Shown here in pieces: positions 42,588 through 61,648 of a stretch of 64,000 nt of DNA (positions are counted from its first letter, which is position 1; each line of letters starts with the position of its first letter). The DNA comes from Chryseobacterium gleum. Its GTDB lineage: Bacteria; Bacteroidota; Bacteroidia; UBA10329. The notes beneath the pieces were generated by a model. The model did not search any database. It was not told the DNA's origin and worked only from the letters and a program-made list of their open reading frames with translations. The stretch lies in contig CAMDOM010000003.1 of the NCBI GenBank assembly GCA_945903645.1, positions 64,507-128,506 of the forward strand. The letters run 5' to 3'. The translations under genes were made by a program, and so were the position numbers.

Positions 42588-42813
42588 TTTAAGTTCAAGA
42601 CAAATTTACAGATCCAACTACGTAAAACACGTATACTGACGTTGCGAATACCATAAATCCTGTCACGCTACTTACACGAATCCCAAGGTTTTTGCCGCTT
42701 TCAGCCATTTTTCGAAATTAATCATCTGTGGGGTTGGTCGCGAAGATGATGTTCAACGTAATTGGTGATTACTACATTTGTTGCCTAGTTTTTTCTTTAA
42801 CAAATCACCTCGA

Positions 42814-45058: not shown

Positions 45059-47953
45059 ATGATTAAATATTTTTTACCCATATTGTTCTTTTTGTTGATC
45101 GCAATAAATGGATTTGCTCAAGTAAGCGTTCATGGTGAACCTCTATCGTTTAGCATTCCGTTATTGCGCGATATTGCGGCACCAACCCTAAGAGTTTATG
45201 GTTTTAATGCCGCCCAGGTAGCAACGGAAGACGCCTTGGAAGACCCTTTGGGCAAAGCACCTAGGTATGCTAAATTACTTTCCGCTGGGTTCAATCTCGA
45301 AAATTCGGGGGAATGGACGCCTTTGAAAAATGGAGACCGTGTTTGGCGCTTACGTATAGAAACTTCCCAAGCCCAAGCTGTCACATTGTTTTATGATGAT
45401 TTTTCAATACCTGTAGGAGGTAGACTGTACATATATAATGACGCTAAAAGCGAGTTTATTGGAGGGTTTTCCTCAATGAATAATACTGATGGAGGAACCT
45501 ATGCAACACCTTTGGTTTTTGGAGATGCTGTAACAGTTGAATACTTTGAGCCTCATACTGCAATTGGTCAAGGAAGACTTAGCATTGAACAAGTAGGCCA
45601 TGCTTATAGGTTTGTGCTTGAAGATGATAGGCTGGAAGAAGAAACAAACCAACGTGGTGGAGAAGCATGCGAAGTGGATATAAATTGTTCGCCAGAAGGA
45701 ACCAATTGGCAGGATGAAAAACGCGGTGTTGTTCGAGTTTCGGTAGTTAGTGGGCAAGGTGCAGGCTGGTGCACTGCTTCGATGATAAATAACACTGCTC
45801 TGAATTGTAGAAATTTTGTTTTGTCGGCTTTGCACTGTGGCGATAATTCGACTGCCAATAATTTCGGTCAATACGTGTTCTATTTCAATTACGAACGACC
45901 GGGATGTGGAACTGGAACAGCTTCTCAAGCACAATCAATGACGGGCTGCGTAAAACGTGCCGAAAGCAATGATGGTGGTGGTAATAGTGGGTCGGACTTT
46001 TTGCTCATGGAACTGAATGCAACGCCTCCGTCTAACTATAATGTTTACTACAACGGTTGGAATAAGCAAGCAACAGCAAGCACGAGTGGTGTTGGTATTC
46101 ATCATCCTGCTGGTGGACGTAAAAAGATTTCTACTTATACCTCTGCGCTGCAATCAACTTCTTGGGGTTCAGCAAATGGCTCGCATTGGTCAGTTACGTG
46201 GGTTGCAACTGCCAATGGCCATGGCGTTACAGAAGGAGGTTCTTCTGGTTCACCACTTTTTAACAGTGCTGGATTGATTGTAGGAACGTTAACTGGTGGA
46301 GGGTCATTTTGTAATTCACCAAATTCACCAGATTCGTATGGTAAAATGTCCTATCACTGGACAAGCAATCCCGGTGATGACTTAAGTGTTTGGCTTGACC
46401 CAACAAATTCTGGGGTTAACAGCTTAACTGGAACTTATGCTCCTTGCACAGTTGTAAATACGCTAGATGCGGGTATCGCTTCTGTTAGTGTGCCTTCCGG
46501 TTCTATATGCGCTACTGCAATCGCTCCAATTGTTACCCTTCAAAATTTTGGGACCACAACAATAACTGCTGTTCAGATTATTTCCAATGTTGACGGAGCA
46601 AACCAGCAAACCTATAGTTGGACAGGAAGTCTTGCCGCAGGTGCTACGGTTTCAGTTACACTGCCCAATAGAAATGTTGCAGCTGGTGCGCATGTATTCA
46701 ACGTGAACACAAATCTGCCCAACGGTCAAGCTGATCAAAGCTCGGGCAACAATAGTGCAAGTTCAAATTTCACAGTGGTGGTTGCCAATTCGTACGTTAC
46801 TCTGCGCTTGACTACCGATAATTATGGCGATGAAACTACTTGGCAGGTAACTCAATCGGGTGGTGGAGTAGTGGCCTCTGGTGGGCCATATACCACTTCA
46901 GTTGTTTCGTTTGTTGAGCAAGAAATTTGTGTTCAAACAGGGCAATGCTATACTTTCACCATTTCCGATTCTGAAAACGATGGCATTTGCTGTCAGTATG
47001 GCAATGGTTCTTATTCTATTGCTGATGCGAGTGGAACCAGCATTTACACTGGAGCAGCGTTTGGCGCATCTGAACAGGTTAACTTTTGTGTGCCAACTGG
47101 TGTTTCTTCTTGTGATACCATTTATAATCCCTTTTCGTCTGTGGCTTCTGGATATACTTTGTATGCCAACGGTGGTGGTGGTTATATATCAGGTTCTAAC
47201 AGTTTTGGTGATGTGGCCAAAGCGCAGGCATTTTCAGCACCAACGGGTGCTACGGAAATTGCTGGGATAGTATATTGGGTTGGAGCTAAGCAAAATAGTG
47301 GCGGCAGTGTTTCCGTCAATTTGTATGACTTAGATGGTGCTGGAGTGACAGTGGCTGGCAACACTACCAATGCGCCAGGAACTATTTTGGGTTCGCTTAG
47401 TGTTCCTTTAAGCCGAGTGGATACGGCTACTTTTTTGAACTATGCTGAATTTGCATCGCCAGTTGTTTTGGGTGGAGCTTATGCGGTAGGAATTGATTTT
47501 TCTACGCTAGCAGCTGGAAATCAAATTGGAATTGTAACTAATGTGGATGGCGATGCTGGCAGTGCAGAACGTTCATGGGAAAAATGGGAGGATAACACCT
47601 GGCATACCATTGACCAGGGATGGAATTCGAGTTCCAACGGCAAATTTGACCTTGGTATTTTTCCGGTGCTATGTCCTTTAAATGTAACGGGAGTTAATCA
47701 GGCTAATGCCAATTCTTTGATGGTATTTCCAAATCCATCTTCGGGGCAATTATCCATTGGTTTTGTGTTAAATGGAAGCGATTACGCTACGATTGAAGTA
47801 ATATCTTCCATTGGGCAATTGGTGCATTCCGAAGCTGTAGTTGGACCTTTTGGAACAATCAACTTATCGTTGAATGATCAACCTAACGGGCTTTATATAG
47901 TGCGTTTGCAAACGCAAGAGGGAACCATCGTGCAGAAATGGATAAAGCAATAG
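45059..47953 (+). CDS. Secreted multidomain S1-family (trypsin/lysyl-endopeptidase-like) serine protease with a T9SS C-terminal sorting domain
   Basis: Signal peptide MIKYFLPILFFLLIAINGFAQ. The catalytic triad context is SALHCG (His), GGSSGSPLF (Ser, a GDSGGP variant) and a disulfide-rich fold. Long Thr/Ser/Gly-rich beta domains follow. The T9SS CTD is VFPNPSSGQLSIGF...VQKWIKQ. Confidence 0.65.
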   Translation: MIKYFLPILFFLLIAINGFAQVSVHGEPLSFSIPLLRDIAAPTLRVYGFNAAQVATEDALEDPLGKAPRYAKLLSAGFNLENSGEWTPLKNGDRVWRLRIETSQAQAVTLFYDDFSIPVGGRLYIYNDAKSEFIGGFSSMNNTDGGTYATPLVFGDAVTVEYFEPHTAIGQGRLSIEQVGHAYRFVLEDDRLEEETNQRGGEACEVDINCSPEGTNWQDEKRGVVRVSVVSGQGAGWCTASMINNTALNCRNFVLSALHCGDNSTANNFGQYVFYFNYERPGCGTGTASQAQSMTGCVKRAESNDGGGNSGSDFLLMELNATPPSNYNVYYNGWNKQATASTSGVGIHHPAGGRKKISTYTSALQSTSWGSANGSHWSVTWVATANGHGVTEGGSSGSPLFNSAGLIVGTLTGGGSFCNSPNSPDSYGKMSYHWTSNPGDDLSVWLDPTNSGVNSLTGTYAPCTVVNTLDAGIASVSVPSGSICATAIAPIVTLQNFGTTTITAVQIISNVDGANQQTYSWTGSLAAGATVSVTLPNRNVAAGAHVFNVNTNLPNGQADQSSGNNSASSNFTVVVANSYVTLRLTTDNYGDETTWQVTQSGGGVVASGGPYTTSVVSFVEQEICVQTGQCYTFTISDSENDGICCQYGNGSYSIADASGTSIYTGAAFGASEQVNFCVPTGVSSCDTIYNPFSSVASGYTLYANGGGGYISGSNSFGDVAKAQAFSAPTGATEIAGIVYWVGAKQNSGGSVSVNLYDLDGAGVTVAGNTTNAPGTILGSLSVPLSRVDTATFLNYAEFASPVVLGGAYAVGIDFSTLAAGNQIGIVTNVDGDAGSAERSWEKWEDNTWHTIDQGWNSSSNGKFDLGIFPVLCPLNVTGVNQANANSLMVFPNPSSGQLSIGFVLNGSDYATIEVISSIGQLVHSEAVVGPFGTINLSLNDQPNGLYIVRLQTQEGTIVQKWIKQ

Positions 47954-47985: not shown

Positions 47986-49158
47986 CTAAGATTTTTGCCC
48001 GAAAATCATTTCAGCAGACTTCTTGCCTATGCTTGCGCCCAAAGCCACGCCCATACCGCCCATGCGCACTGCACAGGTAATGTGAGTTGAAATTGTTTGT
48101 ACCAGAGTGTCTTTCGTTTTTCCCAATCCCATCACGCCCGACCACCTATGCGCTATGGAAAATTCCATGTTTGGGAGAATAGTTGTGCGCAATAACTCTT
48201 CCAATTTGTTCTGAATCAGTTCAGTTAGTCCAGTTAAGCTAGTAGTTTCGTTTTCAAAATCTAAATTTCGTCCACCGCCAATCAATATCCTGTTTCCTAT
48301 ATTTCTAAAATAGTAGTAGCCTTCCTCCAAGTGAAAGGTTCCATTTACCTTCAAATCAGCTATCGGATTTGTGATTAGAACTTGGGCGCGAGCAGGTCTT
48401 ACATCAAATTCGGGAAGCAATTCCTGGGCAAAACCGTTAGTTGCAATGTGAATGTGCCCAGACCAAAGTTCATATCCATTATCCAACAATGCGATTGCAC
48501 CAGTATTGCTTTCTGTAATAGTTGTTACTCCCATTCCTGTTAGAATGAAAATACCCAATGATTGAACTTTCTGTGTAAGCGAGTGCATCATTTTGCCAGT
48601 ATGCAAGGCACCTTCACCTTTGTTGTGAATGAGGTGAGAAACTCCTTCAAAACCAAATGCGGCAATTTTATGGTCAGCTACTTCATAGGTGTTGGACAAC
48701 CCAGTTAAATGACCAAGTTGCGTATTGGCATTAGAAATGAACGATAAACACTGGTTGAAAATAGCTTCATGCTTTGGAGTAAGTAGTTCAAATCCGCCAC
48801 AGTTTTCATAACCTAAAACATCATCTCCAATTAGGTTTCGAAGCAATTTCAATCCCTCAATTCGGTGAGCAACACGCTCAAAAACTTCACTTTCTGATTG
48901 GGTTTGCAAGTCTGACAGCAATTCACTGGCACTACCAAAACAGGCGAATCCTGCATTTTTTGTACTTCCACCACTTGGTAATGAACCTCGCTCTACAACA
49001 ACAATTTTTAGGTTAGGATTGCTTTGTTTACTGTAGATTGCAGTCGTTAATCCAACAATCCCACTTCCAATTATTAACAGGTCTATATTTGCAAGATATG
49101 TTTCAATTTCCCAGTAGCTTAAATTGGGCGGTTGAGCTGTTGTGAAAATTGTGTCCAT
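47986..49158 (-). CDS. FAD-dependent oxidoreductase (DAO family)
   Basis: The N-terminal Rossmann fold DLLIIGSGIVGLTTA and the DAO-like C-terminal region GGMGVALG. Confidence 0.75.
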   Translation of the reverse strand: MDTIFTTAQPPNLSYWEIETYLANIDLLIIGSGIVGLTTAIYSKQSNPNLKIVVVERGSLPSGGSTKNAGFACFGSASELLSDLQTQSESEVFERVAHRIEGLKLLRNLIGDDVLGYENCGGFELLTPKHEAIFNQCLSFISNANTQLGHLTGLSNTYEVADHKIAAFGFEGVSHLIHNKGEGALHTGKMMHSLTQKVQSLGIFILTGMGVTTITESNTGAIALLDNGYELWSGHIHIATNGFAQELLPEFDVRPARAQVLITNPIADLKVNGTFHLEEGYYYFRNIGNRILIGGGRNLDFENETTSLTGLTELIQNKLEELLRTTILPNMEFSIAHRWSGVMGLGKTKDTLVQTISTHITCAVRMGGMGVALGASIGKKSAEMIFGQKS

Positions 49159-49241
49159 TTGATGAATTTTGTGCGTCTAAAAGTGAAACAAATAAACGTT
49201 AACGAGGTAAGAGTTCGTCAGCGTAGCATCACCAATAATTC

Positions 49242-52200
49242 ATGAGTTTGAGTAGTTTATTTTTATTGAATCTCAAGCGAACATGTTTAGTAGCACTTCT
49301 GCTGTTTGCAGGGTTACAATCTACGTTCAGTCAGTCTCGAAATTTGGCAATTAATGGTTCCATTCGACAGTATCGCAAAACGCTGGAAGGTGTAAAAATC
49401 ACGCTTTATAAAAGTGGTCGCTCTGAAAAAGTAATGACTACAGCAGCTAATGGTAAGTTTTCCATGAATTTGGAGGTCAACGCAGATTACATTTTCGAGG
49501 TTATAAAGTCTGGCTATGTAAGTAAAAAGATTTCATTCAACACTAAAGTGCCGGATGATGTCAAGCAATCTTGGACATTTGATTTTGAGGTAGAGCTTTT
49601 TGAAGATTTGGAAGGCTTCGATAGAGCCATTTTCGTCAATCCTGTTGCTCAAGTAGAATTTAGTACGGAGCTAGGAGAGTTTGATTACAATCTTGACTAT
49701 TCTATGGAGTTTGAGAAGCAAGAGGAAGAAGCATTCAAAAAACTAGAGCAGATTAGTAAAGACGAGGAAGAGGATAAGAAAGCCGCTCAAGAGTTGGAAA
49801 AACTGCGTTTGGCTGCCGAAGAAGCGCGCAGAAAGAATGCTGAGGCTAAAATGATGTCTGATGCCTTGGCGCGCAAAGTGGAAGAAGAGAATAATCGCAA
49901 AGCCGAGGAAGCAGCTGAGACTAAACGCATAGAAGAGGAACGCATTCGCAAAGAACAAGAAGCCGTAGAAGCCAAGCGCTTAGAAGCCGAAGCTACAGTC
50001 AAAGCTGCCAATGAAGAGCGTATCCGCAAGGAACAAGAAGCCGCAGAAGCCAGACGATTAGAAGCCGAAGCAGCCAATGAAGAACGTATTCGTAAGGAAC
50101 AAGAAGCCGTAGAAGCCAAGCTCTTAGAAGCCGAAGCTACAGCCAAAGCTGCCAATGAAGAGCGTATTCGTAAGGAACAAGAAGTCGCAGAAGTTAAACG
50201 CATAGAAGCCGAAGCAGCGGCCAAAGCAGCCAATGAAGAACGTATACGCAAGGAACAAGAAGCCGCTGAAGCCAAACGTTTAGAAGTCGAAGCTATAGCC
50301 AAAGCAGCCAATGAAGAACGTATTCGCAAGGAACAAGAAGTCGCAGAAGCCAAACGCATAGAAGCCGAAGCTACGGCCAAAGCAGCCAATGAAGAACGTA
50401 TTCGCAAGGAACAAGAAGTTGCAGAATCCAAACGCATAGAAGCCGAAGCTATAGCCAAAGCTGCCAATGAAGAGCGTATCCGCAAGGAACAAGAAGTCGC
50501 AGAAGCTAAACGTATAGAAGCCGAAGCCACGGCCAAAACTGCCAAAGAAGAGCGTATTCGCAAGGAACAAGAAGTCGCAGAAGCCAAACGCATGGAAGCC
50601 GAAGCTGCCAATGAAGAGCGTATTCGTGAGGAACAAGAAGACGCAGAAGCCAAACGTTTGGAATCCGAGGCAGCAGCTAAAGCAGCCAATGAAGAACGCA
50701 TCCGAAAGGAGCAAGAAGTCGCAGAAGCCAAGCGTTTAGAAGCCGAAGCTGCCAATGAAGAGCGTATTCGCAAGGAACAAGAAGTCGCAGAAGCCAAACG
50801 TTTAGAATCCGAAGCTACAGCCAATGCTTCCAATGAAGAGCGTATTCTCAAGGAACAAGAAGCCGCAGAAGCCAAACGCCTAGAAGCCGAGGCATTGGCA
50901 AAATCGAATGCCGAAGAAAGGTTGAAAAAAGAGCAAGAAGCAATTGAGGCCAAACGATTGGATGCAGAAGCAGTAGCAAATACTGAAAAAGCTGAGCTTT
51001 TACGAAAGGAGCAAGAACTTGCAGAAGTCAACAGATTAAGTAACGAACTCAAGGGCAAGGAAGCCGCCAATGAGGAGCATATTCGAAAAGAAAAGGAGCA
51101 AGCCGAAGCCAAGAGTTTGGAAGACGAACATAAGTTGAAGGAAATAGCAGCTCAAGCGGAGGATCAACGCAAAAGAAGTGAAACTGATCTTGCATTAAAA
51201 TCGGATATGTTGAATCAACAATTCAGCGCTCTTCTCACTGAAGGTGATGCGTTTGTTTCTACTAAAGAGTATGAAAAAGCTAAGGCTAGCTATCGTCAAG
51301 CTCAAGTGCTTAATGCTGAATCTCAAGAGGTAGTTAGTAAAATTACTGAAGTAGATTCGCTAATTGCCAATCAAGTAGAAGAGGAGAAAAAAGAACTGGC
51401 CATTGAAAAGCAATACGCCTTTTTCATGAAAAATGGGGCTGCTGCATTTAGTAGAAAGCAGTTGGATGAGGCATTGAGCAACTACAGAGACGCGGCCGCG
51501 ATTCGACTTGAATTACCTGAGCCAAAAGCGAAAATTGAAGAGATTGAAAAGCTGATGCAGCTTGAGGCCAATCAGAAAGCGCTCGAAGCAGCACAAACAC
51601 AGCAATTTGCCAAGCTCGTAGCAGAGGCCGACAGAGATTTTAAAGCCAAGAACTACGAGCAATCGCTTCGTATGTACAAGGATGCTTTGGAGTTGAAGCC
51701 AACAGATAGAAACGTTATCACACGAATTACTTCCATAAATGAAATACAAGAGCGTGCCAAGTTAGCTGAACGCGCTAAATTGTCTAACGAAGAGGCAGAC
51801 CGTCAGGCCGAGCTGGATAAAATCAGAGCAGAGGAAGAACGTGTTAAAAAAACAGCAGTTGATGCTGATGAAAAACGATTAGCGGATGCACGTGCGGCCA
51901 AGGAGTTAATTGAGGCGCAAAAACGAGAGGAAACTGCTCGAGAGGCTTATGAGAAAGCGAAGTTGGCGGAATTAGCAGTCCAACAGGAAGCTGAAAATGT
52001 AAAGCGACAAGCCGAAGAGGAAGAAAAGCTTAGGTTTTTGGCCGAAATGAAAGTTATAGAAGAACAAAAGCGATTAAGAGAAGAAGAGGAATTAAAGGCT
52101 AAACAAGAATCCAAAGCTCAATCAGATAGAGCAAAAGCCGCAGCTGAGCAAGCAATTCGCGATGCTGAAAAGTCTAAAGCCGAAGATGCGGCAGCCAAAA

Positions 52201-53735
52201 AGTTAGCTTTGGAAGAGCAAGCGCTGCGTGAAAAAGAAGAAGAGGAACGCAAACTAGCTGAAGTACGTTTAGCCGAAGATATCCGGAGGTTGAAACTCAT
52301 TGAAGAGAACCGATTACTTCAAGAAGCTCGCGAAAAGGCCGATTTGGAGGCAAAAGCAAAAGCCGAGGAGGAAAATAGAACTCGGGAGGAGCGCTTAAAT
52401 GCAGATCGGGAACAATATGAGAAAGAAGGTGCGCAAGTGGCATTAAATAATGCAGAGCTCGAGCGCCAAGCACAAATTGCTGCCAATTTGGAAGAGCAAG
52501 AACGCAGAATGGCCATTGAAAAGGAACGTCAGCGCCAGCAGGAAGAGTATGATAGACAAGCACGAGAAGAGGCGGATAGACTTGCCGCAGAAGCAGAAGC
52601 TATTCTTCAAAAGGAAGTGAAAATGCGCGAAGACCGCATGAGAGCTGAAGTTGAAGCCAAGCTTAAAGGGGAATTTGAAAAACAGTTTGCTGGTGAAGTG
52701 AAAGAACTGAACCAACAAGAGCAAGACGAAGCAGAGTTTAAAGCGGTGATGGCACGCCAACAAGAGCTTGAAATGCGCAAAAAGGAAGAGGAAAAAGCGC
52801 AAAAAATTGCAATGCTAGAAACCCGTAGACGCCAACAAGAAGAGGCATATGCAGCACAACAAGAGGAGGCTAGAAAAGTGGAAGAGGCACGCAATAATGC
52901 TGAGAAGTCACGCATCAAAAAAGAAGCCGAAGAATTGGCAAGGGTAGAAGATGAACGCATCAAGCAGGAAGAACTAGCGCGTATTGCAGCCGAGCGCTTA
53001 GCCCAACGCGCAGCCGAAGAGGAAGCCAGAAGGCTGCAAGAAGAGGCTCGAAAGCAAGGTCAATTGGCTGCAGCAGAACAGGCAGCATTGCTTGCAAAGA
53101 AGGAACAACAGCAACGGGAAGAAGCACAACGCGCTATTGACGCGCAGAAAATTGCAAGGGCACAACAGGAATTTGCAGCTCAAGAACGGCTAAAAGCGAA
53201 GGAAAAAGCACGGAAAGTTGCCGAAGCCGAAAACTTAGCGCGCGTAGCCTTGGAGAAAAAAATCTATGACGATAAACTGAGGTTAGAAGCGGAGGAGCGC
53301 AAAAAAGTGGAAACTACGGCCAAGGAAGAGAACTACCAAAATAAAATTGAGTTTGAAAAGAAAGCCAAAGATTTGGCTAAAACAATGGTAGAATCAGAGC
53401 GCGTAGACTACGAGGAACAAACCCGTCAGAAGTTAGAGCTGGAGTATGCCAAGAAACGTGAGGAATTACTGGCCGCAAAATCTGCTCCTGCTAAGCCAAC
53501 TTTTTCAGGCATGTTTAGCCAATACCAAATTGATTTATCAGGACGTTATCCAGAAGGTGTAACGGAAGAATCTGAGATATTCCCGAATAGAGAGATAAAA
53601 CGAATTATAGTGAACCGTGGAGGCGGTAACGCCAATCTTTATAGCAGAGTGCAGTGGAATTGGGGAGGTGTTTATTATTTCAAAAACGACCAGAATACCT
53701 CCAAGCTAATTTTTGATTCAGAATCGAAGTGGTGA
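49242..53735 (+). CDS. Giant (1497 aa) secreted protein: signal peptide, carboxypeptidase-regulatory-like beta-sandwich, >1000 aa of E/R/K/A-rich predicted single alpha helix with tandem repeats and three TPR-like units, and a small C-terminal domain
   Basis: Signal peptide MSLSSLFLLNLKRTCLVALLLFAGLQSTFSQS. The CRD-like segment is GSIRQYRKTLEGVKITLYKSGRSEKVMTTAANGKFSMNLEVNADYIFEVIKSGYV. Tandem units read ANEERIRKEQE(A/V)AEAKR(L/I)EAEA(TAKA). Three TPR-like motifs are YEKAKASYRQAQVLN, LDEALSNYRDAAAIR and YEQSLRMYKDALELKP. The single uninterrupted ORF has no T9SS CTD. Confidence 0.7.
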   Translation: MSLSSLFLLNLKRTCLVALLLFAGLQSTFSQSRNLAINGSIRQYRKTLEGVKITLYKSGRSEKVMTTAANGKFSMNLEVNADYIFEVIKSGYVSKKISFNTKVPDDVKQSWTFDFEVELFEDLEGFDRAIFVNPVAQVEFSTELGEFDYNLDYSMEFEKQEEEAFKKLEQISKDEEEDKKAAQELEKLRLAAEEARRKNAEAKMMSDALARKVEEENNRKAEEAAETKRIEEERIRKEQEAVEAKRLEAEATVKAANEERIRKEQEAAEARRLEAEAANEERIRKEQEAVEAKLLEAEATAKAANEERIRKEQEVAEVKRIEAEAAAKAANEERIRKEQEAAEAKRLEVEAIAKAANEERIRKEQEVAEAKRIEAEATAKAANEERIRKEQEVAESKRIEAEAIAKAANEERIRKEQEVAEAKRIEAEATAKTAKEERIRKEQEVAEAKRMEAEAANEERIREEQEDAEAKRLESEAAAKAANEERIRKEQEVAEAKRLEAEAANEERIRKEQEVAEAKRLESEATANASNEERILKEQEAAEAKRLEAEALAKSNAEERLKKEQEAIEAKRLDAEAVANTEKAELLRKEQELAEVNRLSNELKGKEAANEEHIRKEKEQAEAKSLEDEHKLKEIAAQAEDQRKRSETDLALKSDMLNQQFSALLTEGDAFVSTKEYEKAKASYRQAQVLNAESQEVVSKITEVDSLIANQVEEEKKELAIEKQYAFFMKNGAAAFSRKQLDEALSNYRDAAAIRLELPEPKAKIEEIEKLMQLEANQKALEAAQTQQFAKLVAEADRDFKAKNYEQSLRMYKDALELKPTDRNVITRITSINEIQERAKLAERAKLSNEEADRQAELDKIRAEEERVKKTAVDADEKRLADARAAKELIEAQKREETAREAYEKAKLAELAVQQEAENVKRQAEEEEKLRFLAEMKVIEEQKRLREEEELKAKQESKAQSDRAKAAAEQAIRDAEKSKAEDAAAKKLALEEQALREKEEEERKLAEVRLAEDIRRLKLIEENRLLQEAREKADLEAKAKAEEENRTREERLNADREQYEKEGAQVALNNAELERQAQIAANLEEQERRMAIEKERQRQQEEYDRQAREEADRLAAEAEAILQKEVKMREDRMRAEVEAKLKGEFEKQFAGEVKELNQQEQDEAEFKAVMARQQELEMRKKEEEKAQKIAMLETRRRQQEEAYAAQQEEARKVEEARNNAEKSRIKKEAEELARVEDERIKQEELARIAAERLAQRAAEEEARRLQEEARKQGQLAAAEQAALLAKKEQQQREEAQRAIDAQKIARAQQEFAAQERLKAKEKARKVAEAENLARVALEKKIYDDKLRLEAEERKKVETTAKEENYQNKIEFEKKAKDLAKTMVESERVDYEEQTRQKLELEYAKKREELLAAKSAPAKPTFSGMFSQYQIDLSGRYPEGVTEESEIFPNREIKRIIVNRGGGNANLYSRVQWNWGGVYYFKNDQNTSKLIFDSESKW
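49935..50900 (+). repeat. In-frame coding tandem repeat array of 69/78/87-nt units, ~12 copies at >85% identity with degenerate copies continuing to ~51110
   Basis: The unit GAAGAGCGTATTCGCAAGGAACAAGAAGTCGCAGAAGCCAAACG(T/C)(A/T)TAGAAGCCGAAGCTACAGCCAAAGCAGCCAAT recurs head-to-tail. Unit lengths differ by multiples of 3 (insertion or deletion of the TAKA codons). Confidence 0.85.
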
Positions 53736-53882
53736 TAGTGGAAACACAATTCACCTGAATTTTCGAAACATGAACCACATCGAATTCAATAACGACCAAA
53801 AGCAGTAAAAAATTGCCGATTAGTTTTATCTTAATTGGATGTTAAAAATATTGTTGCAAGTCCAATGGTGATTCTATCCCTT

Positions 53883-54194
53883 CTACCCTTTAGTTGAAAT
53901 GGTTAAGGAATAGCTTCCATGAGGCAAATTAGGCATTGAAAATTGGCCAATAATATCTGTTTGAGTGCTGTAGGTTTTGTTATTCTCATCGCTCAATACT
54001 ACGGTGACGAACTCTAATAAATCTCCATTTGTATTCTGTATGCGGCCCGTTAATATTGAGTTTTTCCCACTAATCTGAGTGGACTTAAGATAAAACTTGG
54101 AGCCTGAACATTTGTGCTGTGTTGTTTCAAATTTGGTTTTATAGCCAAAAGCACTCACTATAACCCACAAGATAAGGATGATTAATGGTTTCAT
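53883..54194 (-). CDS. Small secreted carboxypeptidase-regulatory-like (CRD) beta-sandwich protein
   Basis: Signal peptide MKPLIILILWVIVSAFG. The CRD segment is GRIQNTNGDLLEFVTVVLSDENNKTYSTQTDIIGQFSMPNLPHGSYSLTIS. The track start GTG 54206 was moved to ATG 54194. It lies directly downstream of the porE-like gene. Confidence 0.5.
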   Translation of the reverse strand: MKPLIILILWVIVSAFGYKTKFETTQHKCSGSKFYLKSTQISGKNSILTGRIQNTNGDLLEFVTVVLSDENNKTYSTQTDIIGQFSMPNLPHGSYSLTISTKG

Positions 54195-54202
54195 CTTTTG
54201 TA

Positions 54203-56194
54203 TCACTTCCCTGTAATCACAAACTCCGTCCTGCGGTTTTTGGCTTTGCCCTCGGGGGTGGTGTTGGGGGCAAGGGGCTTGGTGGCGCCAAAGCCTTGGT
54301 GGGAGAGGCGCGCTGCGGCAATGCCCTTGGAGATGAGATAGTCGTTTACGGCCTTTGCGCGGTTTTGCGAGAGGGTCATGTTGAGGGCATCGCTGCCATC
54401 GCTATCGGTGTGGCCGTGGATGGCAACCTTGACCTTGGGGTTGGCTTTGAGGTAGTTGGCAAAAGCGGCCAATATGTTTTTGCTCGCTACGTTTAGTTCA
54501 AAGCGTTCAAACTCAAAATGGATGTCGTGTAGCCTATATGCCTCGCCTGCTTTGGCTTCTTTTACCTCTACATTCATTTTGGTAACGCCTGTTAGGGAAG
54601 TGTCTTCTGTGCTGAAATAGCGCGAGGTGAAGGCTGCACCTTCGCGCTCTACAGTCATGACCACATCGCTGGTAAAATTCATTACCGCCACGTAATTGCC
54701 CGTAATACTGTCGGCTTCCACCTCATACACTTCTTTGGTACGCATGTTTTCGAACCGCACTTTGGCATCGGTAACCCTTCTATTTTGGTCATCGGTGAGC
54801 TTGCCTTTTAGAAATAACACCTTATCGGGCTGGGCTTCTTTGTAAAGTGGAAAGCTGAATAAATCCCAGCCGCCATTACCGTCCTCGCGTTCGTTGCTGC
54901 TGAAATAAGCCGTTTTTCCATCTACAGCTACAAAGAAATTAACATCGGCACCTTCGGTATTTATGGGGTGGCCTAGGTTTTTTGGGGTGAGCCAATTGCC
55001 CAGGCTGTCGTGCTTAGTGAAATAAATATCGAAACTACCCACGCCTTTGTGCCCTTCTGAACTGAAATAAAGCGTGTGGCTATCTTCATGGATAAATGGC
55101 GATTTTTCGTTTTTCCTAGTATTGATAGTGGTACCCATGTTTTTGGCTTCGTCCCATGTGCCATCGTCTTTCAGGTGCGAATAGTACAAATCCATGTTGT
55201 CGATGTCGCCAATTTCATCTTCACGTATGCTTACGAAATAGAGCGTCTTTCCATCGGGGGTAACGGTGGGTTGGCCTTCGAAGGCGTTCTTTTTGTTGAC
55301 GCCTGGGCCAAGGTTTATGGGGTCGCTCCAACCATGATACTGCCAGTTGCTGTGAAAAATGTCGCAGTTTTTGTAGCCCTGAGCATCGTCTTCGCAAATG
55401 GTGAGAAACATGCGCTTGTTGTCGATGGTCATGCTGGCGCTGCCAATGTTTTCGGTGACATTGAAAGGACGAGGCATAGCAGTTCCGCCATCAAACTTGC
55501 CGTCAGGCTGTTTTTTACTGAGGGTAAATTCTTCCACTTGGCGAGGTGTGAGGTCGTTTTTGCGCGTCACCATGTGGTTGCGGATGTACAGGGCATTTTC
55601 TCCATCGGGCGAAAGGATGGCCAGATATTCATTATTGCGACTCGAAATTCCCGAAACAACGCTGGGCATAAACGCCACGGGATGGGCAAACAATGAATCG
55701 TAAAACGCGCATTGCGGTATCAAGCTTTCCACCTGCTCATATTTGGCCGTATAGTCTTTGGGATACATGCGTGGGTCTGGCAATTCTACCTTTAAGAAAC
55801 GCTTGAAATGCCCCTCGGCTTCCTTAAAGTCTTTGCGCTCCATGGCTATCACTCCCATAAAATAATAGGGGTAGGGATGGTAGTCTGGACATTGTTCGAC
55901 CACGCGCTGCATGGCATCATAGCCAAAACTGATGCCTTTGCCCATGGGGTTCTTTTCGGCCTTCGTCATTTGATCGAAGTATTTGGCGAAAAGGGCACCC
56001 GTGTGGTTGGGTTCTTCTTTGAGTATTTCCTCATATAATTCGTTGCGCACTGAGGGCTTCTTTTCGTCCACCGCTTCTTCCCAAAGCTTTTGCAGTTTTT
56101 TGGAGCCCGGCATCTCGCACCCTTCTGGGTTTTGGGCCGCCAGTTCTCCAGAAAAACAAAGCAGTAGGAAGGGAAGAAAACGAAGGTTCATCAT
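54203..56194 (-). CDS. PorE-like T9SS-associated protein: TPR + beta-propeller + carboxypeptidase-regulatory-like + OmpA_C peptidoglycan-binding domains
   Basis: Signal peptide MMNLRFLPFLLLCFSGELAAQ. N-terminal TPR-like helices (YYFMGVIAMERKDFKEAEGHFKRF). TolB/WD40-like blades (SPDGENALY, PDGKTLYFVS, GKTAYFSS). A CRD-like segment (KGKLTDDQNRRVTDAKVRFENMRTKEVYEVEADSITGNYV). The OmpA_C motif is HGHTDSDGSDALNMTLSQNRAKAV...NRRTEF. This four-domain order matches that described for Porphyromonas PorE. Confidence 0.65.
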   Translation of the reverse strand: MMNLRFLPFLLLCFSGELAAQNPEGCEMPGSKKLQKLWEEAVDEKKPSVRNELYEEILKEEPNHTGALFAKYFDQMTKAEKNPMGKGISFGYDAMQRVVEQCPDYHPYPYYFMGVIAMERKDFKEAEGHFKRFLKVELPDPRMYPKDYTAKYEQVESLIPQCAFYDSLFAHPVAFMPSVVSGISSRNNEYLAILSPDGENALYIRNHMVTRKNDLTPRQVEEFTLSKKQPDGKFDGGTAMPRPFNVTENIGSASMTIDNKRMFLTICEDDAQGYKNCDIFHSNWQYHGWSDPINLGPGVNKKNAFEGQPTVTPDGKTLYFVSIREDEIGDIDNMDLYYSHLKDDGTWDEAKNMGTTINTRKNEKSPFIHEDSHTLYFSSEGHKGVGSFDIYFTKHDSLGNWLTPKNLGHPINTEGADVNFFVAVDGKTAYFSSNEREDGNGGWDLFSFPLYKEAQPDKVLFLKGKLTDDQNRRVTDAKVRFENMRTKEVYEVEADSITGNYVAVMNFTSDVVMTVEREGAAFTSRYFSTEDTSLTGVTKMNVEVKEAKAGEAYRLHDIHFEFERFELNVASKNILAAFANYLKANPKVKVAIHGHTDSDGSDALNMTLSQNRAKAVNDYLISKGIAAARLSHQGFGATKPLAPNTTPEGKAKNRRTEFVITGK

Positions 56195-56196
56195 TG

Positions 56197-58908
56197 CTAT
56201 TTCCCGAAAATGCCTTTCAATTTGTCGGCAGCAGCTTTTTTCGCTTTTGATTCTGCTTCTTTTTTCAAACGATCGGCTTCTTTTCGAGCGCGGTCTTCGG
56301 TTTCTTTTTTCAAGCGTGTAGCCTCTTGCTCTGCCTGACCTTTTAGTTTATTCACCTCTTGCTCGGCCTGTTGTTTCAATTTGTCGGCTTCTTCTTTGGC
56401 TCTGCGCTCCAGTTCTTCTTTCTGCTTGTTGAGCTCGTCTGTAGCCATGTTTTTCAGGCTTTCTCCCATGTTCGCTCCGCCCGAACCACCAAATGATGGG
56501 GTGATAATCGGTTTGGCAAAGGTGCCTTTCACCAGCAAGTCCATGTCAATTTTGTCGGTAGCGCCAAGGTTAACGCCAAAACCTTTGGCCGCAGAAGATA
56601 AACTTCCAATAACGGCAGTGACCTGCGAACCAAGTGCCGCAGTAGGAATGCTGGTTTTTATTACATAGTCCATGGTTTCATCAAATCCGTGGCTACCACC
56701 AATGTTTGCAGATACAGGACCAACTTTCACATCGAATGGAGCAATAGAAACGCGACCATTTTCAAACTTGAAGCTCAGGTTCATATCTTTCACCTCTGGG
56801 TTTTTTAATGCGGGATATTTAACCACCTCGGTGATTTTGTTCAGCATTTCAGTACCCTTCACTTTTAGGCTTTTAGACGTAAGTCTTCCACCACCGTTCA
56901 AGGATTTGAGGTCGGCATCCATGCCATTCAAACCACCTTTTACAGCGAATTGTAGGGATATTTTGCCTTCTGTTTTCTCTCCAAATGGAATCAGTTTTTT
57001 GACCGTATTGAACGTGCGGAAGGCTTCTTTCACCACCACTTCATTTACATTCAAATCAAAAGCGAATACTGGTTTTTTCTCATTGCGTGAGTCATAGTTT
57101 CCGCTCATAGTCACGCCACCGCCAAGGGTATTAAAGTATAGTCCACTCAAATCGGCCTTGCCTTCGCGAATGCTGACATTGCCTTTCACTTGCGATAGGG
57201 TCATGTTGTCGTAGATGAGTTTGCTCACGTTGAGAGCCAACGCAACATCCAAGTTTTGGGGAATAAGCATGGGCTCTGATGTGGTGGCGGCAGGCGCTGA
57301 TTCGGTAGGTTTTGCTTCGGGAGCGGCATTCGGGTCGGTAGGAACTATTCCCATCAATTGATTTACATCGAGCAAGGTGCTGTTTAGCGCAAAGCTTCCT
57401 TTCAACAATTCATCTTTAAACGCATAGCCTAAATAGTTCTCAATCTTGCCACTAGCTTTGAAATCTGATTTGCCTGCCTTGGCATCGAATGAAGTCAATT
57501 CTAAGTGTGTTGGGGCAAATTTGAACTGTGCGTATTTCACGTTTATCGGTAACACCAATGATTTTGTGGCGTATTCAAAGTTGGTGAGTATGAATTCGCC
57601 ACGGGCCACAAAGCGGTCGTATTGCTTGTTGTCGAGATACGATTGACGGCCTTTCAAATCGGCATCGGCTATGAGTGTGCCTGTAATCTTATCTTCTTTT
57701 TCGAGCGGCATCACATCGGCCACGCTTCCAAGTTCGAGTTTGCCTTTAAAGGAGGCGTCAATGTCTGGGTCGCTAGTTGGAGTCTTAATCAGCATCCGAA
57801 CATCAAATGGATTTCCAGCCATTTGAAAGTGAAGTTTCTTGAGGTTAACGACAGTGCGGTCTGGATCGCCTCCAGGATTCATTACATTCAAGTCGATGGT
57901 AATTTGCTCCACTTTTTTCGTCAAATCCGGGTATTGAAACGAGGCATCATCTACCTTCAAATTGAGATTGAAAGCGGGCATTGTTGTTTCATTGTAGGTG
58001 CCTTTGGCCATGCCATTGAGAGCAAGTTTTCCGCTGGTTTTTACAGCAGAAAAATCGGTCATGTAAACAGATGGAATGAGCGATAGAATCTCTTTGAAGT
58101 CTGTTTTTGGTGCTCCAAACGTTAAATCCATAGTGATGTCGTCATCGTTTGGCATGCCCACGTTGCCCTTCCATACAAGATTTAGCCCGTTTATGCGCAG
58201 CGAGTTGTCTTTCAATACGAACTGCATATTCTTCATATCGGCATCAACTTCTGCTTTTACTTCCAATTCCACTCTACTTAAGTATGGAATCCCACCGTTT
58301 ACCAAGGTTAGTTTATCCATAGTCACCTCGGTATCTACCGAAGTATTGTCGGCCGTAAAATCGCCACTCAATTCCATATTCAACGCAGCAGTGTTAATTG
58401 CAGTGCCGCCTTCGCGATCATCGTAGCGTATCTCTACATTATCGATTGAGAATTTCTTCAGTTTAAGTTGGAATGCAGTGGGTTCAGCGGCTGGGGCTTC
58501 GGCTCCATCTTCGCTTGAAGGAACAATATCATAGCTCGCCTTGCCGCCTTTTAGCACCGTTGCGCTCACCAATCCGTTTGCCAAATTGATGTGGTTTATT
58601 ACAGGCGCACCATTGATAGCGCTCATGATGTTTACATCCAAGCCCAATGTTTCGAGATAGACAAGGGTATCGCCTTCAAATTCTTGAACTCCGATAACGG
58701 AAAGGTTTTCTACACCTACAAACAAGTCCGGAAAACTGCGAAAGAGCGATAGGCTTACATCACTAAAATTGATTTTAGCATTTAGGTTTTTGTTGGCTTC
58801 TTCCAACACTTTTTTCTTAATCGGTTCTTCTAGAACGATAGGGATAATGATGGCTGCGGCAAGCAGAATACCGAAGAATATACCTAAACCGATGAGTGCT
58901 TTTTTCAT
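56197..58908 (-). CDS. AsmA-family (TamB/AsmA-like) envelope protein with a C-terminal ER/K-rich helical tail
   Basis: N-terminal TM anchor MKKALIGLGIFFGILLAAAIIIPIVL, then an ~800-aa beta-rich AsmA-like body. The tail is ELNKQKEELERRAKEEADKLKQQAEQEVNKLKGQAEQEATRLKKETEDRARKEADRLKKEAESKAKK. Its stop overlaps the porE-like start (ATGA-type junction). Confidence 0.6.
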   Translation of the reverse strand: MKKALIGLGIFFGILLAAAIIIPIVLEEPIKKKVLEEANKNLNAKINFSDVSLSLFRSFPDLFVGVENLSVIGVQEFEGDTLVYLETLGLDVNIMSAINGAPVINHINLANGLVSATVLKGGKASYDIVPSSEDGAEAPAAEPTAFQLKLKKFSIDNVEIRYDDREGGTAINTAALNMELSGDFTADNTSVDTEVTMDKLTLVNGGIPYLSRVELEVKAEVDADMKNMQFVLKDNSLRINGLNLVWKGNVGMPNDDDITMDLTFGAPKTDFKEILSLIPSVYMTDFSAVKTSGKLALNGMAKGTYNETTMPAFNLNLKVDDASFQYPDLTKKVEQITIDLNVMNPGGDPDRTVVNLKKLHFQMAGNPFDVRMLIKTPTSDPDIDASFKGKLELGSVADVMPLEKEDKITGTLIADADLKGRQSYLDNKQYDRFVARGEFILTNFEYATKSLVLPINVKYAQFKFAPTHLELTSFDAKAGKSDFKASGKIENYLGYAFKDELLKGSFALNSTLLDVNQLMGIVPTDPNAAPEAKPTESAPAATTSEPMLIPQNLDVALALNVSKLIYDNMTLSQVKGNVSIREGKADLSGLYFNTLGGGVTMSGNYDSRNEKKPVFAFDLNVNEVVVKEAFRTFNTVKKLIPFGEKTEGKISLQFAVKGGLNGMDADLKSLNGGGRLTSKSLKVKGTEMLNKITEVVKYPALKNPEVKDMNLSFKFENGRVSIAPFDVKVGPVSANIGGSHGFDETMDYVIKTSIPTAALGSQVTAVIGSLSSAAKGFGVNLGATDKIDMDLLVKGTFAKPIITPSFGGSGGANMGESLKNMATDELNKQKEELERRAKEEADKLKQQAEQEVNKLKGQAEQEATRLKKETEDRARKEADRLKKEAESKAKKAAADKLKGIFGK

Positions 58909-59129
58909 GGAAAGTTGAATTGAAATAGTGAGTTGTATTGCTCGAAATCAAGCTTCGAAGGTACTCAACAGAAGGTAGTTCTTCGAGTTGGGGCACGGCT
59001 ATTTATTGTATAATTTTTTGGTGGCGCAATGCGATATATTTGTCATGTAACCTTAAGGCCATGACAAAACAAGATTAAACGGAAGAAAAATTTGCTGAAA
59101 AAGCCAAATGAAAAATTCAAAATTTCTTT

Positions 59130-59537
59130 TTGTGGTTCGCTGCTGTGGCGGTCATTTTAACCACGGTAGTTACCTTATTTCTGGTGTATGCCATCTATAG
59201 AGAAGGCGTGCGAGCAGGAACTGTTTTGAAGATAAGCAAGCGTGGAATGCTATTTAAAACCTATGAAGGTCAACTGGATTTGGAGGTGTTTGGTGCCAAT
59301 GTGAACAAAGAGAACCTACTGAACCAAGCATTCATGTTTTTAGTAAAAGACCCCGCTGTGATTAAAGATTTGGATGCAGTTTCCATATCGGGAGAGCGGG
59401 TTAATTTGCGGTATGAAGAAAAGTATTTGCAACTTTCGTTTTTATGGGAGACTAAGTATTTCGTTACTGCGGTAGAGCGGTCGATGGTAGAATTGGAGGG
59501 AGTCCTTATTCGTTTGGAGCAAAAAAAATGCCCTTGA
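59130..59537 (+). CDS. Hypothetical small membrane-anchored protein; start uncertain (TTG in the track)
   Basis: The N-terminus is hydrophobic, AAVAVILTTVVTLFLVYAIY. There is no in-frame ATG before it; the first in-frame ATG is at Met40. There is no recognisable domain. Confidence 0.35.
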   Translation: MWFAAVAVILTTVVTLFLVYAIYREGVRAGTVLKISKRGMLFKTYEGQLDLEVFGANVNKENLLNQAFMFLVKDPAVIKDLDAVSISGERVNLRYEEKYLQLSFLWETKYFVTAVERSMVELEGVLIRLEQKKCP

Positions 59538-59559
59538 ACCATGGTTCAAGGGCATTTTT
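59521..59559. terminator. Strong bidirectional terminator: perfect 28-nt palindrome flanked by A8 and T5
   Basis: AAAAAAAATGCCCTTGAACCATGGTTCAAGGGCATTTTT. The palindrome centre is CCATGG. It serves both the convergent genes 59130..59537 and 59576..61288. Confidence 0.8.
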
Positions 59560-59575
59560 AGTAAGCGGATTTCGC

Positions 59576-61288
59576 TTATTTCTTAATCAGCGTGCGGAAT
59601 GAAGTTGAAGTTCCATCTTGGAACGTAAGACGGAATATATGCATTCCATTGCTCAAAGAAGATGCATCGACACGAAGTGTGTTACTAGCTCCGTTGGTAA
59701 TGTTTTGGCTCATCATTTCGCGACCAGCCATATCAAACACATTCAGAATTACATTTCCTTTTACAGTTGTTCCCATTGGAATGCTAATAAAATCGGCTGT
59801 TGGGTTTGGATAAGCCATGATTTCTTTGCTAGCAACATCTTCTGCAATACCAGTAGCAGATGAAAGGTGCGTGATTATAGCTGGTGAATTGTCGGGACCA
59901 AAGCCACCAGGAGTCCATGTTGTGCCCACTTTAACTGGGAAAAAGATGTCTGAAGGATATGCATCGTAAGTAAGTTCGTAGTCAATACCCGCATCAACGG
60001 TTAGGAACATGCTATCTCTAAAAATAGTAGCACATACCAAATACTTGATGCCATCTTCAAGGAAAACGGGCTCGTCAAAATCTGCTCTTACAAATTCGCC
60101 ATCAGCATTTTCGGTATAATCATAGAATACTTCACCGATTTGCAAAAGGTCTGTAAATGTTAGTGTAGTAGTGGTTTCGTCAAAGATGTCGTTCCACTCA
60201 TATACTTCTAGGAGAACAGCATCACCTTCAAGTGAATCGAGACCATTAGTGATAGTTGAGAAGCTAACGCCATCCACTTTCATGTTGCTTGCGTTATTAG
60301 AGCGAAGCATGGTGCACCATGTGAATTCAGGTCCAGTTGCTGGACGAATACCACCACCACCAATTGGCTCTGATGTGGTAGGATTAATGCGGCTTTTTGA
60401 ATACAGACCTTGGTCGTTTATCCAGAAATTAACATCCAAAAGGTTGTCGTTTGGAAATTCATCTTCAGTGGAAGTGGCTACCGAATAAGAAAGCGTGTAG
60501 TAGCCCACTGGATAGTTGTCTAGGGCAAAGTTTGGCAAAGAAACCAATACACTATCGCCAGCAAGAACGCTTTCTGGAGAAGATGTTTCATTATAAAGCT
60601 CATCACCATCAACGGTGATAACAGCACTAAGGCTCAATCCGGTTTGATTTTCTGAACCGTAGTTGTGCAACCATGCTCCCACTGGAATATCGAAATCCGT
60701 GCTATCCAAAGCAAATTGTACGGGAGTAGCAAAGCTCTTTGCCATTGCAACGTTTGGTTTTTGGAAACCAGCATCGAAAGCAAAAAGGCCAGTTTTATTT
60801 CCGATAAACATTTGTAGCGTTCCAGCATCTACATATTGCCGAAGCGCTGCACCGTCTGTGTTGCTAATCATAACTACAGGAATAGTAACTTGAGCACCAA
60901 CGGCACCACCGCCCATGCCAACGGGCTCACCTGGAATGTTGTTTACAATAATTACCCCAACGGCACCAGCATCTTGTGCTTTCAATGCTTTCGCGCCAAA
61001 TTCGCAATCACCACGATATAACATGGCAATTTCCCCGTCTAGTTCAGCGGTATTGCTAGCAACAGCACAAGCCAAAGTGTCGGAAGCAACTGCTGCGCGA
61101 TAAAGCACAACCATGGCTGATACTTCTGTGGTGTCCATGTCTGCACCCCAAGTGTCAGAATAGGTAAAGGTGTAGCTTCCTTCTGCTGCAGCTGGTGCTT
61201 CGCCCAAGACCACGAGCTGGGCGTTAACTTGTGCAGAGAACGCCATTGCGGCAATTATTCCTACACTTTTAAGTAGTGTTTTTTTCAT
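59576..61288 (-). CDS. Secreted PA (protease-associated) domain protein with a T9SS C-terminal sorting domain
   Basis: Signal peptide MKKTLLKSVGIIAAMAFSAQVNAQ; the track's upstream ATG 61363 was not used. The PA-domain-like segment is GEIAMLYRGDCEFGAKALKAQDAGAVGVIIVNN. The T9SS CTD is MAYPNPTADFISIPMG...FRTLIKK. Confidence 0.6.
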   Translation of the reverse strand: MKKTLLKSVGIIAAMAFSAQVNAQLVVLGEAPAAAEGSYTFTYSDTWGADMDTTEVSAMVVLYRAAVASDTLACAVASNTAELDGEIAMLYRGDCEFGAKALKAQDAGAVGVIIVNNIPGEPVGMGGGAVGAQVTIPVVMISNTDGAALRQYVDAGTLQMFIGNKTGLFAFDAGFQKPNVAMAKSFATPVQFALDSTDFDIPVGAWLHNYGSENQTGLSLSAVITVDGDELYNETSSPESVLAGDSVLVSLPNFALDNYPVGYYTLSYSVATSTEDEFPNDNLLDVNFWINDQGLYSKSRINPTTSEPIGGGGIRPATGPEFTWCTMLRSNNASNMKVDGVSFSTITNGLDSLEGDAVLLEVYEWNDIFDETTTTLTFTDLLQIGEVFYDYTENADGEFVRADFDEPVFLEDGIKYLVCATIFRDSMFLTVDAGIDYELTYDAYPSDIFFPVKVGTTWTPGGFGPDNSPAIITHLSSATGIAEDVASKEIMAYPNPTADFISIPMGTTVKGNVILNVFDMAGREMMSQNITNGASNTLRVDASSLSNGMHIFRLTFQDGTSTSFRTLIKK

Positions 61289-61393
61289 GATGATTTGGTT
61301 GAAGATTTTGTGAATTATTTTTTTGGAATGCAAATATACTTCGAGGTTATGAAACCTTAACATTTGTTGTGATTATTAAGAATAAAAGGACAA

Positions 61394-61648
61394 TTAATGC
61401 TTGAAACGGACGAATAAACGTCCGAAGTTCTTGCTATCCTTATCAATGCGGTGGTATTTTGCCTTTATGTGTTTTTGTTCGAGAAAACGGATAACGGCCT
61501 TTTTCAATTGTCCACTTCCTTTGCCCGGAATAATTTCTACTAAAGGAATGCGTTTTTCTACTGCTTCGTCAATCACGCGGTTTAATTCGGTATCAATCTT
61601 CTTGCCTTTATTGAAGATTTCGTGGAGGTCGAGAACGAGTTTGGACAT
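61394..61648 (-). CDS. Smr-domain protein
   Basis: LDLHEI...VEIIPGKGSGQLKKAV..., which is the small MutS-related (Smr) domain signature. Confidence 0.7.
   Translation of the reverse strand: MSKLVLDLHEIFNKGKKIDTELNRVIDEAVEKRIPLVEIIPGKGSGQLKKAVIRFLEQKHIKAKYHRIDKDSKNFGRLFVRFKH

Follow-up and report, generated by a model that had tools for sequence, protein, structure and literature searches.

A 64,000-nucleotide (nt) stretch of the Chryseobacterium gleum contig CAMDOM010000003.1, hereafter the window, carries on its minus strand a gene for an AsmA-like protein of 903 amino acids (aa), followed directly by a gene for a PorE-like protein of 663 aa. We consider it likely that the real feature of this locus is a conserved two-gene operon, consisting of the asmA-like gene (56197-58908) and then the porE-like paralogue (54203-56194), and that the small open reading frame (ORF) and the giant gene lying beside them do not belong to it. 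Both proteins are of known kinds and the conserved pairing is the new part; no AsmA-like/PorE-like connection was found in the literature searched. The original prediction had combined all four genes into one co-functioning module that spans the envelope. The ORFs that it listed were all found in the window, with the giant ORF convergent on the minus-strand genes:

56197..58908, minus strand: asmA-like gene, ORF of 903 aa
56195..56196, minus strand: 2-nt spacer, an operon-type junction read directly from the sequence
54203..56194, minus strand: porE-like gene, ORF of 663 aa
53883..54194 (103 aa, ATG start) or 53883..54206 (107 aa, upstream GTG start), minus strand: small ORF
49242..53735, plus strand: giant charged ER/K protein of 1497 aa

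Conservation and architecture of the pair

All relatives whose PorE-like protein was at least 50% identical had the asmA-like gene directly upstream of the porE-like gene in the same orientation (L089, 94%; L007, 86%; L005, 72%; L001, 68%; L008, 66%; L003, 53%; L011, 52%; L009, 51%), and the pair was also present in L090, where the AsmA-like identity was 91%. A scan of species-representative genomes yielded 80 loci, and 68 loci overall had enough upstream sequence to be assessed. The pair was found in 27 of these 68, at AsmA-like identities down to 30%, and the metagenome-assembled genomes bearing it were labelled Flavobacteriales, Bacteroidales, Bacteroidia or Bacteroidota, while the outer neighbours of the pair changed between loci. 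The synteny check thus revealed a pair conserved across many Bacteroidota loci, with the small ORF and the giant gene absent beside it in all relatives.

The junction between the two genes is tight. In the window, the asmA-like stop codon TAG (56199-56197) is followed by CA and then by the porE-like ATG at 56194 (...AAA TAG CA ATG ATG...). Translational coupling had been proposed on the basis of a stop/start overlap; the close, co-directional linkage holds, but the literal overlap does not, being replaced here by a 2-nt spacer. Overlaps of 4 nt (ATGA) occurred in five relatives (L027, L035, L043, L047 and L048) and a 1-nt overlap in one locus, and the remaining junctions were mostly spacers of 1-38 nt, with a minority of gaps of 65-987 nt.

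We compared the 903-aa protein with family profiles and with known folds. It matched Pfam AsmA (PF05170) over residues 1-252 with 63.4 bits (cutoff 29.8), but reached only 38.5 bits on the NCBIfam equivalog model of E. coli AsmA (cutoff 412) and is therefore not an AsmA orthologue. Its AlphaFold2 (AF2) model had a mean predicted local distance difference test score (pLDDT) of 77.8, with a helix at residues 2-41, beta-strands at 44-805 and a C-terminal charged helix of low confidence (pLDDT <50) at about 815-900. Searches of both protein models against the PDB were performed with Foldseek. The best match of the AsmA-like model was LPD-3 (9cap_A; E 2.5e-9, probability 1.00), and TamB in the TamAB complex (9xdd_B) was also matched with a probability of 0.97. 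As modelled, the N-terminal transmembrane helix and long beta-groove (RBG/beta-taco) constitute a fold of the bridge-like lipid-transfer type. The Pfam match, together with the LPD-3 and TamB fold matches, identifies the protein as AsmA-like and of the bridge type, in agreement with its earlier assignment.

The C-terminal charged helix of about 70 aa described for this protein was likewise found; it spans about 75 aa (residues 823-897), and the tail ends in LKGIFGK. We compared the tail of the window protein (56197-56470, residues ~815-903) with those of the orthologues in L003, L008, L082, L017, L043, L027 and L013. A charged tail of 70-170 aa was present in every AsmA-like orthologue examined, terminating in L(K/N)G(I/L)FGK in the Flavobacteriales group. 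Its internal repeat was 15 residues long in Flavobacteriales-type tails and 11 in Bacteroidales-type tails, and in L017 and L043 its hydrophobic periodicity peaked at 3.67 residues. This pattern hints at a right-handed coiled coil or an amphipathic helix on a lipid surface, rather than a plain ER/K single helix.

For the 663-aa protein, Pfam detected OmpA (83 bits), PD40 (74 bits) and, weakly, TPR_2, and the AF2 model (mean pLDDT 89.5) resolved four domains:

residues 32-170: TPR/CpoB-like helical domain (AF2 model)
residues 178-450: TolB-like beta-propeller (AF2 model, PD40)
residues 459-545: CRD-like beta-sandwich (AF2 model; undetected by Pfam)
residues 560-662: OmpA_C/Pal-like domain (AF2 model, Pfam OmpA)

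The model and the Pfam OmpA and PD40 matches confirm the predicted order of TPR, beta-propeller, CRD and OmpA_C. Matches in the PDB comprised Pal, OmpA, the PorE C-terminal domain (6top) and TolB (1c5k); 6top matched the OmpA_C domain with E 3.6e-13 by sequence and E 7.5e-9 by fold. Residues D597, N605 and R612 were invariant in 48 homologues, and their spacing equals that of D576, N584 and R591 in PorE, the residues that contact peptidoglycan (PMC7192894). Judged by these residues, the peptidoglycan-binding pocket of the domain is intact. The N-terminus, MMNLRFLPFLLLCFSGELAAQNPEGCE, has a signal peptide of the signal peptidase I (SPI) type with predicted cleavage at ..ELAA|QNPEGC. N-termini of the clade follow the pattern (A/S)Q, then 2-8 mostly acidic residues, then Cys, and no lipobox was seen by inspection in this protein or its clade. 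Across the 48 homologues C26 and C102 were invariant and C267 and C277 nearly so, with C26 just past the predicted cleavage site; these four cysteines may form disulfides.

This architecture raises the question of whether the protein is PorE, a T9SS (type IX secretion system) component. PorE is an outer-membrane lipoprotein (PMC7192894). Its published description is that of a CpoB-TolB-CRD-Pal fusion which some genomes carry in several copies and for which a role as a tether between the outer membrane and peptidoglycan has been proposed (PMC12204202). Flavobacterium johnsoniae has several porE-like copies (PMC9127263, PMC12204202), and six of its porP-like genes adjoin porE-like genes (PMC9143113). 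The window protein scored 223.2 bits on NCBIfam T9SS_PorE (NF052230; cutoff 600) and 216.4 bits on the CHU_0125 family (NF053607; cutoff 620). Twenty family representatives from related loci were all below both cutoffs, at 170.8-366.9 bits on the PorE model. With 20 of 20 below cutoff and no clean separation, these two models are too narrow to sort the clades, and failing the PorE cutoff does not by itself exclude distant orthology. In a neighbour-joining tree of 82 PorE-like proteins, which did not include P. gingivalis PorE, AsmA-adjacent and non-adjacent members were mixed within the main clade, so adjacency to an asmA-like gene marks no single clean subfamily. The basal clade was considered as the "true PorE" and rejected, its N-termini being a mixture of lipoprotein-type and SPI-type. 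No porP-like or core T9SS gene stood beside the pair in any locus examined. Given the sub-cutoff scores, the missing lipobox and the lack of an adjacent porP or T9SS core gene, we call the 663-aa protein a PorE-like paralogue rather than a T9SS component, its orthology to T9SS PorE not being established. Of the original assignment, the PorE-like architecture is thus retained; identity with T9SS PorE is not supported, with 223 bits against 600, a near tie with CHU_0125 and no lipobox.

The giant gene, the small ORF and the surrounding locus

The giant protein stood beside the asmA/porE pair in no relative. Its C-terminal domain (~70 aa, no Pfam model) is shared by a family that forms 264 clusters at 50% identity, and it always occupies the extreme C-terminus of proteins of 68-2282 aa. 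Among the sampled members, those of at least about 600 aa mostly had an N-terminal CRD-like domain and TPR-like repeats; in the window protein, the CRD match was below the Pfam threshold (18.8 bits). A "...KP.E.YPK..I.EI" motif in the TPR-like repeats and a variable coiled coil were noted in the window, L094 and L095. One homologue, P0248, is 46% identical at its N-terminus and 43% identical at its C-terminus. It directly follows a gene that is homologous over the full length, at 51% identity, to the window's 964-aa gene (45059-47953), which encodes a T9SS C-terminal sorting domain (CTD), and no AsmA-like or PorE-like gene was found near P0248. The giant gene therefore travels with the gene on its left-hand side, and this one distant homologue suggests that the giant and the ~965-aa T9SS-CTD gene are a separate conserved pair. 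Membership of the giant in the proposed module accordingly fails on synteny, its conserved neighbour being the 964-aa gene on its other side. A lineage-specific rearrangement breakpoint near 53896 parts the giant from the asmA/porE unit. The first E/A/K/R rod of the giant is encoded by a tandem repeat at 49944-50890 (78 nt, or 26 aa, in 12.6 copies, with a 222-nt higher-order period), which accounts for the strong AT skew (0.36-0.41) at 50-54 kb. As a single case, L005 (the relative at 72%) carries at 5108-5542 a gene for a 144-aa secreted protein that is essentially a copy of the giant's C-terminal domain (at 40% identity); this gene immediately precedes asmA-like in the same orientation.

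The small ORF lies close behind the porE-like gene as predicted, although its ATG at 54194 is 8 nt past the TGA rather than 9; the alternative GTG at 54206 overlaps that TGA by 4 nt. Its stop is separated from the stop of the giant ORF by 147 nt. The relative L089 has an intact gene for a 320-aa CRD lipoprotein 8 nt past porE-like, and window and L089 are colinear, at 85% nucleotide identity, between window positions 57061 and 53896. Of the 320-aa gene, the colinear part takes in only the first ~100 codons, and four codons further on the window ORF ends. The ORF's match to CarboxypepD_reg (PF13620; 44.8 bits, cutoff 32.3) extends over profile positions 2-58, whereas that of the intact L089 homologue reaches 2-81 (profile length 82), and the lipobox ALGC of L089 reads AFGY in the window. 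Differences from L089 numbered 18/17/28 at the three codon positions, and 11 codon changes were synonymous and 32 non-synonymous; the corresponding values for porE-like were 38/17/214, with 205 and 37. The truncated CRD, the lost lipobox cysteine, the even spread of changes over codon positions and the lost colinearity indicate a decaying remnant. The small ORF is probably a pseudogene under relaxed selection, the truncated 5' remnant of the 320-aa gene. It is uncalled in the gene calls of the source record, is absent from the 91% relative L090 and returned no record in an exact-sequence look-up. The rest of the 320-aa gene was nowhere else in the window, where the sole other match was a weak CRD at 12184-12402.

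No recurrent gene family followed porE-like in the 27 pair loci. Membership of the small ORF in the proposed module is thus not supported by synteny either. The site just past porE-like (window ~53736-53896) is variable, with three different contents in three relatives of 85-94% identity:

L090, 14707-15561: homology ends exactly at the porE-like stop; a repeat-rich spacer, then a phosphoesterase gene
L089, 2862-4967: the 320-aa CRD lipoprotein gene and a 263-aa gene
L007: a 290-aa gene

The L090 spacer is rich in short direct repeats of AATCATTGCGCACTT-like and GGAAGCGACCTATGA-like sequence. A second copy of the final 82 nt of porE-like (2777-2858) occurs in L089 at 3910-3991, with 78% identity, just after the 320-aa gene, which thus sits between two copies of the porE-like 3' end (window equivalent 54205-54281 and downstream). 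The arrangement resembles an insertion that carried along a substitute 3' end of its own. No such duplication of the porE-like 3' end was found in the window.

The original prediction further held that ER/K and CRD modules are shared across the locus. The AsmA-like tail scored 101 against the giant in Smith-Waterman alignment, compared with 79.7 ± 6.7 for shuffled tails (z = 3.2), and the raw BLASTP E value of 4e-10 fell to a best of 25 bits, E 6e-4, after composition correction. Repeat units also differ, being 15 or 11 residues in AsmA-like tails and 26 in the giant's first rod. The reported strong resemblance of tail and rod thus appears to be mostly compositional. Because a tail occurs in every orthologue examined and has a different repeat unit, it is best read as ancestral to this AsmA-like family and not as a module traded with a neighbour. 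CRD-like folds do occur in three of the proteins, with that of the small ORF truncated and that of the giant sub-threshold, but no pairwise sequence similarity was detected among the three segments (E >0.2), and the claimed sharing reduces to a common fold. The CRD-type fold is very common in Bacteroidota.

Three genes flank the region, each encoding a Por_Secre_tail (the T9SS C-terminal sorting domain):

42778-44928: M43 peptidase/PKD protein
45059-47953: 964-aa protein
59576-61363: PA-domain protein

Their presence indicates that the organism has a T9SS; none of the three is kept beside the asmA/porE pair in relatives. Divergent from asmA-like, a gene at 59145-59537 (plus strand) encodes a 130-aa membrane-anchored protein with no Pfam match and a 146-aa counterpart in L090. 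An Rfam scan of 49000-61500 gave no match and a tRNA scan found none. A scan for sigma-70 promoters and terminators gave no excess over the shuffled expectation, the consensus not being applicable to Bacteroidota promoters.

Alternative explanations for the locus

It is very improbable that the four genes form one envelope-spanning module in which the AsmA-like tail pairs with the ER/K rod of the giant. Such a module would agree with the adjacency of the genes in the window, the similar E/K/R/A-rich helical composition (raw E 4e-10 without composition correction), the CRD-type folds in three of the proteins and the 144-aa protein with the giant's C-terminal domain upstream of asmA-like in L005. 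However, neither the giant nor the small ORF accompanies the pair in any relative, not even at 94%, 91% or 86% identity; the small ORF is a truncated remnant; tail and rod stand at z = 3.2 over shuffles and 25 bits after correction, with repeats of 15/11 aa as opposed to 26 aa; and the conserved neighbour of the giant is the 964-aa CTD gene. An improbable, though less remote, alternative takes the 663-aa protein as a functional T9SS PorE orthologue that anchors the machine to peptidoglycan, with the asmA-like gene as an accessory for T9SS or gliding. The domain order is that of P. gingivalis PorE (PMC7192894), T9SS_PorE is the best NCBIfam match by a small margin, and three T9SS-CTD cargo genes lie within 15 kb. 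Against this, 223 bits is far under 600 and essentially level with the 216 of the CHU_0125 family, and the protein lacks the lipobox expected of PorE, an outer-membrane lipoprotein (PMC7192894). PorE-like proteins occur in several copies, and the known T9SS-linked ones adjoin porP-like genes (PMC9143113), none of which is found here. A T9SS core gene was adjacent in none of the loci examined. T9SS CTD cargo genes are abundant in such genomes as a matter of general knowledge, so their proximity is weak evidence.

The two genes could also be adjacent merely through an inherited aroC-asmA-porE-like order, with no functional coupling and with proteins that act independently, which we regard as unlikely. 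The observations in its favour also weigh against a two-gene operon. A gene for the functionally unrelated chorismate synthase, aroC, immediately preceded asmA-like in the same orientation in 12 of the 27 pair loci (e.g., L012:1139-2224), so part of the conservation may be plain gene-order inertia; in the window's own lineage, other genes occupy that position. The pair is split in many lineages, with 41 assessable loci lacking the upstream asmA-like gene (22 of the main clade and all 19 of the basal clade), and the AsmA-like orthologue P0240 (40% identity) has no downstream PorE-like gene, while another orthologue has one. Confidence in the two-gene operon is also limited by the low confidence of the modelled AsmA-like tail (pLDDT <50) and by the absence of a lipobox having been judged by eye. 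Simple inheritance of gene order is opposed by the persistence of the pair while both outer neighbours change repeatedly, by junctions with a 1-4-nt overlap or a spacer shorter than 40 nt, as is typical of co-translated operon partners, and by the predicted periplasmic envelope location of both products. We retain the two-gene operon as the likely reading and would leave the small CRD ORF and the ER/K giant out of the asmA/porE system.

Proposed function and comparison with known systems

The most likely function of the two-gene operon would be a lipid bridge spanning the periplasm, coupled to a Tol-Pal-like peptidoglycan anchor. The AsmA-like protein would be anchored in the inner membrane, its lipid groove reaching across the periplasm in the manner of AsmA, TamB and YhdP. 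The co-translated PorE-like protein would be periplasmic, binding peptidoglycan through OmpA_C and offering its TPR, propeller and CRD surfaces for protein contacts. It could thereby position or stabilise the AsmA-like bridge at the wall or the outer membrane, and lipid transport or outer-membrane homeostasis would be coupled to a Tol-Pal-like tether. This scheme follows by analogy from TamB-TamA/TamL and YdbH-YnbE (PMC12045153) and from the Tol-Pal-like role of PorE (PMC12204202). In the window's lineage, the 320-aa lipoprotein gene would have been inserted after porE-like and then decayed to a 5' fragment, and the giant would abut the operon only through the lineage-specific rearrangement breakpoint just past porE-like.

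It is still unsettled how AsmA-like bridges pass through the wall and dock at the outer membrane, few partners being known (TamA/TamL, YnbE), and the role of the multi-copy Bacteroidota PorE-like proteins is debated between a T9SS anchor and a Tol-Pal-like tether (PMC12204202). The conserved asmA-like/porE-like operon offers a candidate for a peptidoglycan-anchored partner of a lipid bridge, and the pairing argues that at least this PorE paralogue serves envelope homeostasis rather than secretion. A bolder and distinctly tentative proposal is that Bacteroidia possess an AsmA-like subfamily obligately paired with a non-lipidated CpoB-TolB-CRD-Pal fusion, which would clamp the bridge to peptidoglycan, its TPR domain possibly binding the hendecad/pentadecad tail. 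If true, a bacterial bridge-like lipid transporter would have an outer partner of a kind not described before, and Tol-Pal-like tethering would be tied directly to phospholipid transport.

AsmA-like proteins have been described as lipid bridges with outer-membrane partners (PMC12045153), and E. coli AsmA, YdbH, YhdP and TamB have in common with the window protein an N-terminal inner-membrane anchor and a long beta-taco groove. F. johnsoniae Fjoh_1342, 1548, 1716, 3185 and 4317 belong to the same group of AsmA-like or bridge-like lipid-transfer proteins. As in tamB-tamA/tamL and ydbH-ynbE, the gene that accompanies the window's asmA-like gene encodes an envelope partner. The partner differs in kind, being a TPR/propeller/CRD/OmpA_C protein of the peptidoglycan-binding type, whereas those of TamB and YdbH are an Omp85 barrel or a small lipoprotein. 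The window protein ends in a charged amphipathic helix with repeats, of the 70-170-aa type, whereas TamB has a pseudosubstrate beta-domain.

On the side of the partner, CHU_0125, the "Pal-like" outer-membrane-integrity protein of Cytophaga hutchinsonii, has the same TPR-PD40-OmpA_C architecture and a near-equal profile score, and its role in outer-membrane integrity fits the function proposed here; for an asmA-like neighbour of CHU_0125, the word "AsmA" occurs 0 times in PMC5891637. P. gingivalis PorE (PG1058/PGN_1296) has the identical four-domain order, the conserved D/N/R triad and an OmpA_C domain that matches 6top. In contrast to it, the window protein is sub-cutoff, is without a lipobox, does not lie beside porP-like or T9SS genes and is encoded together with an asmA-like gene. 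The three folds of the proteobacterial Tol-Pal proteins CpoB, TolB and Pal are fused into one chain in the window protein, as described for PorE (PMC12204202). Unlike Tol-Pal, this protein is a single polypeptide with an additional CRD domain, and no TolQRA genes are adjacent to its gene.

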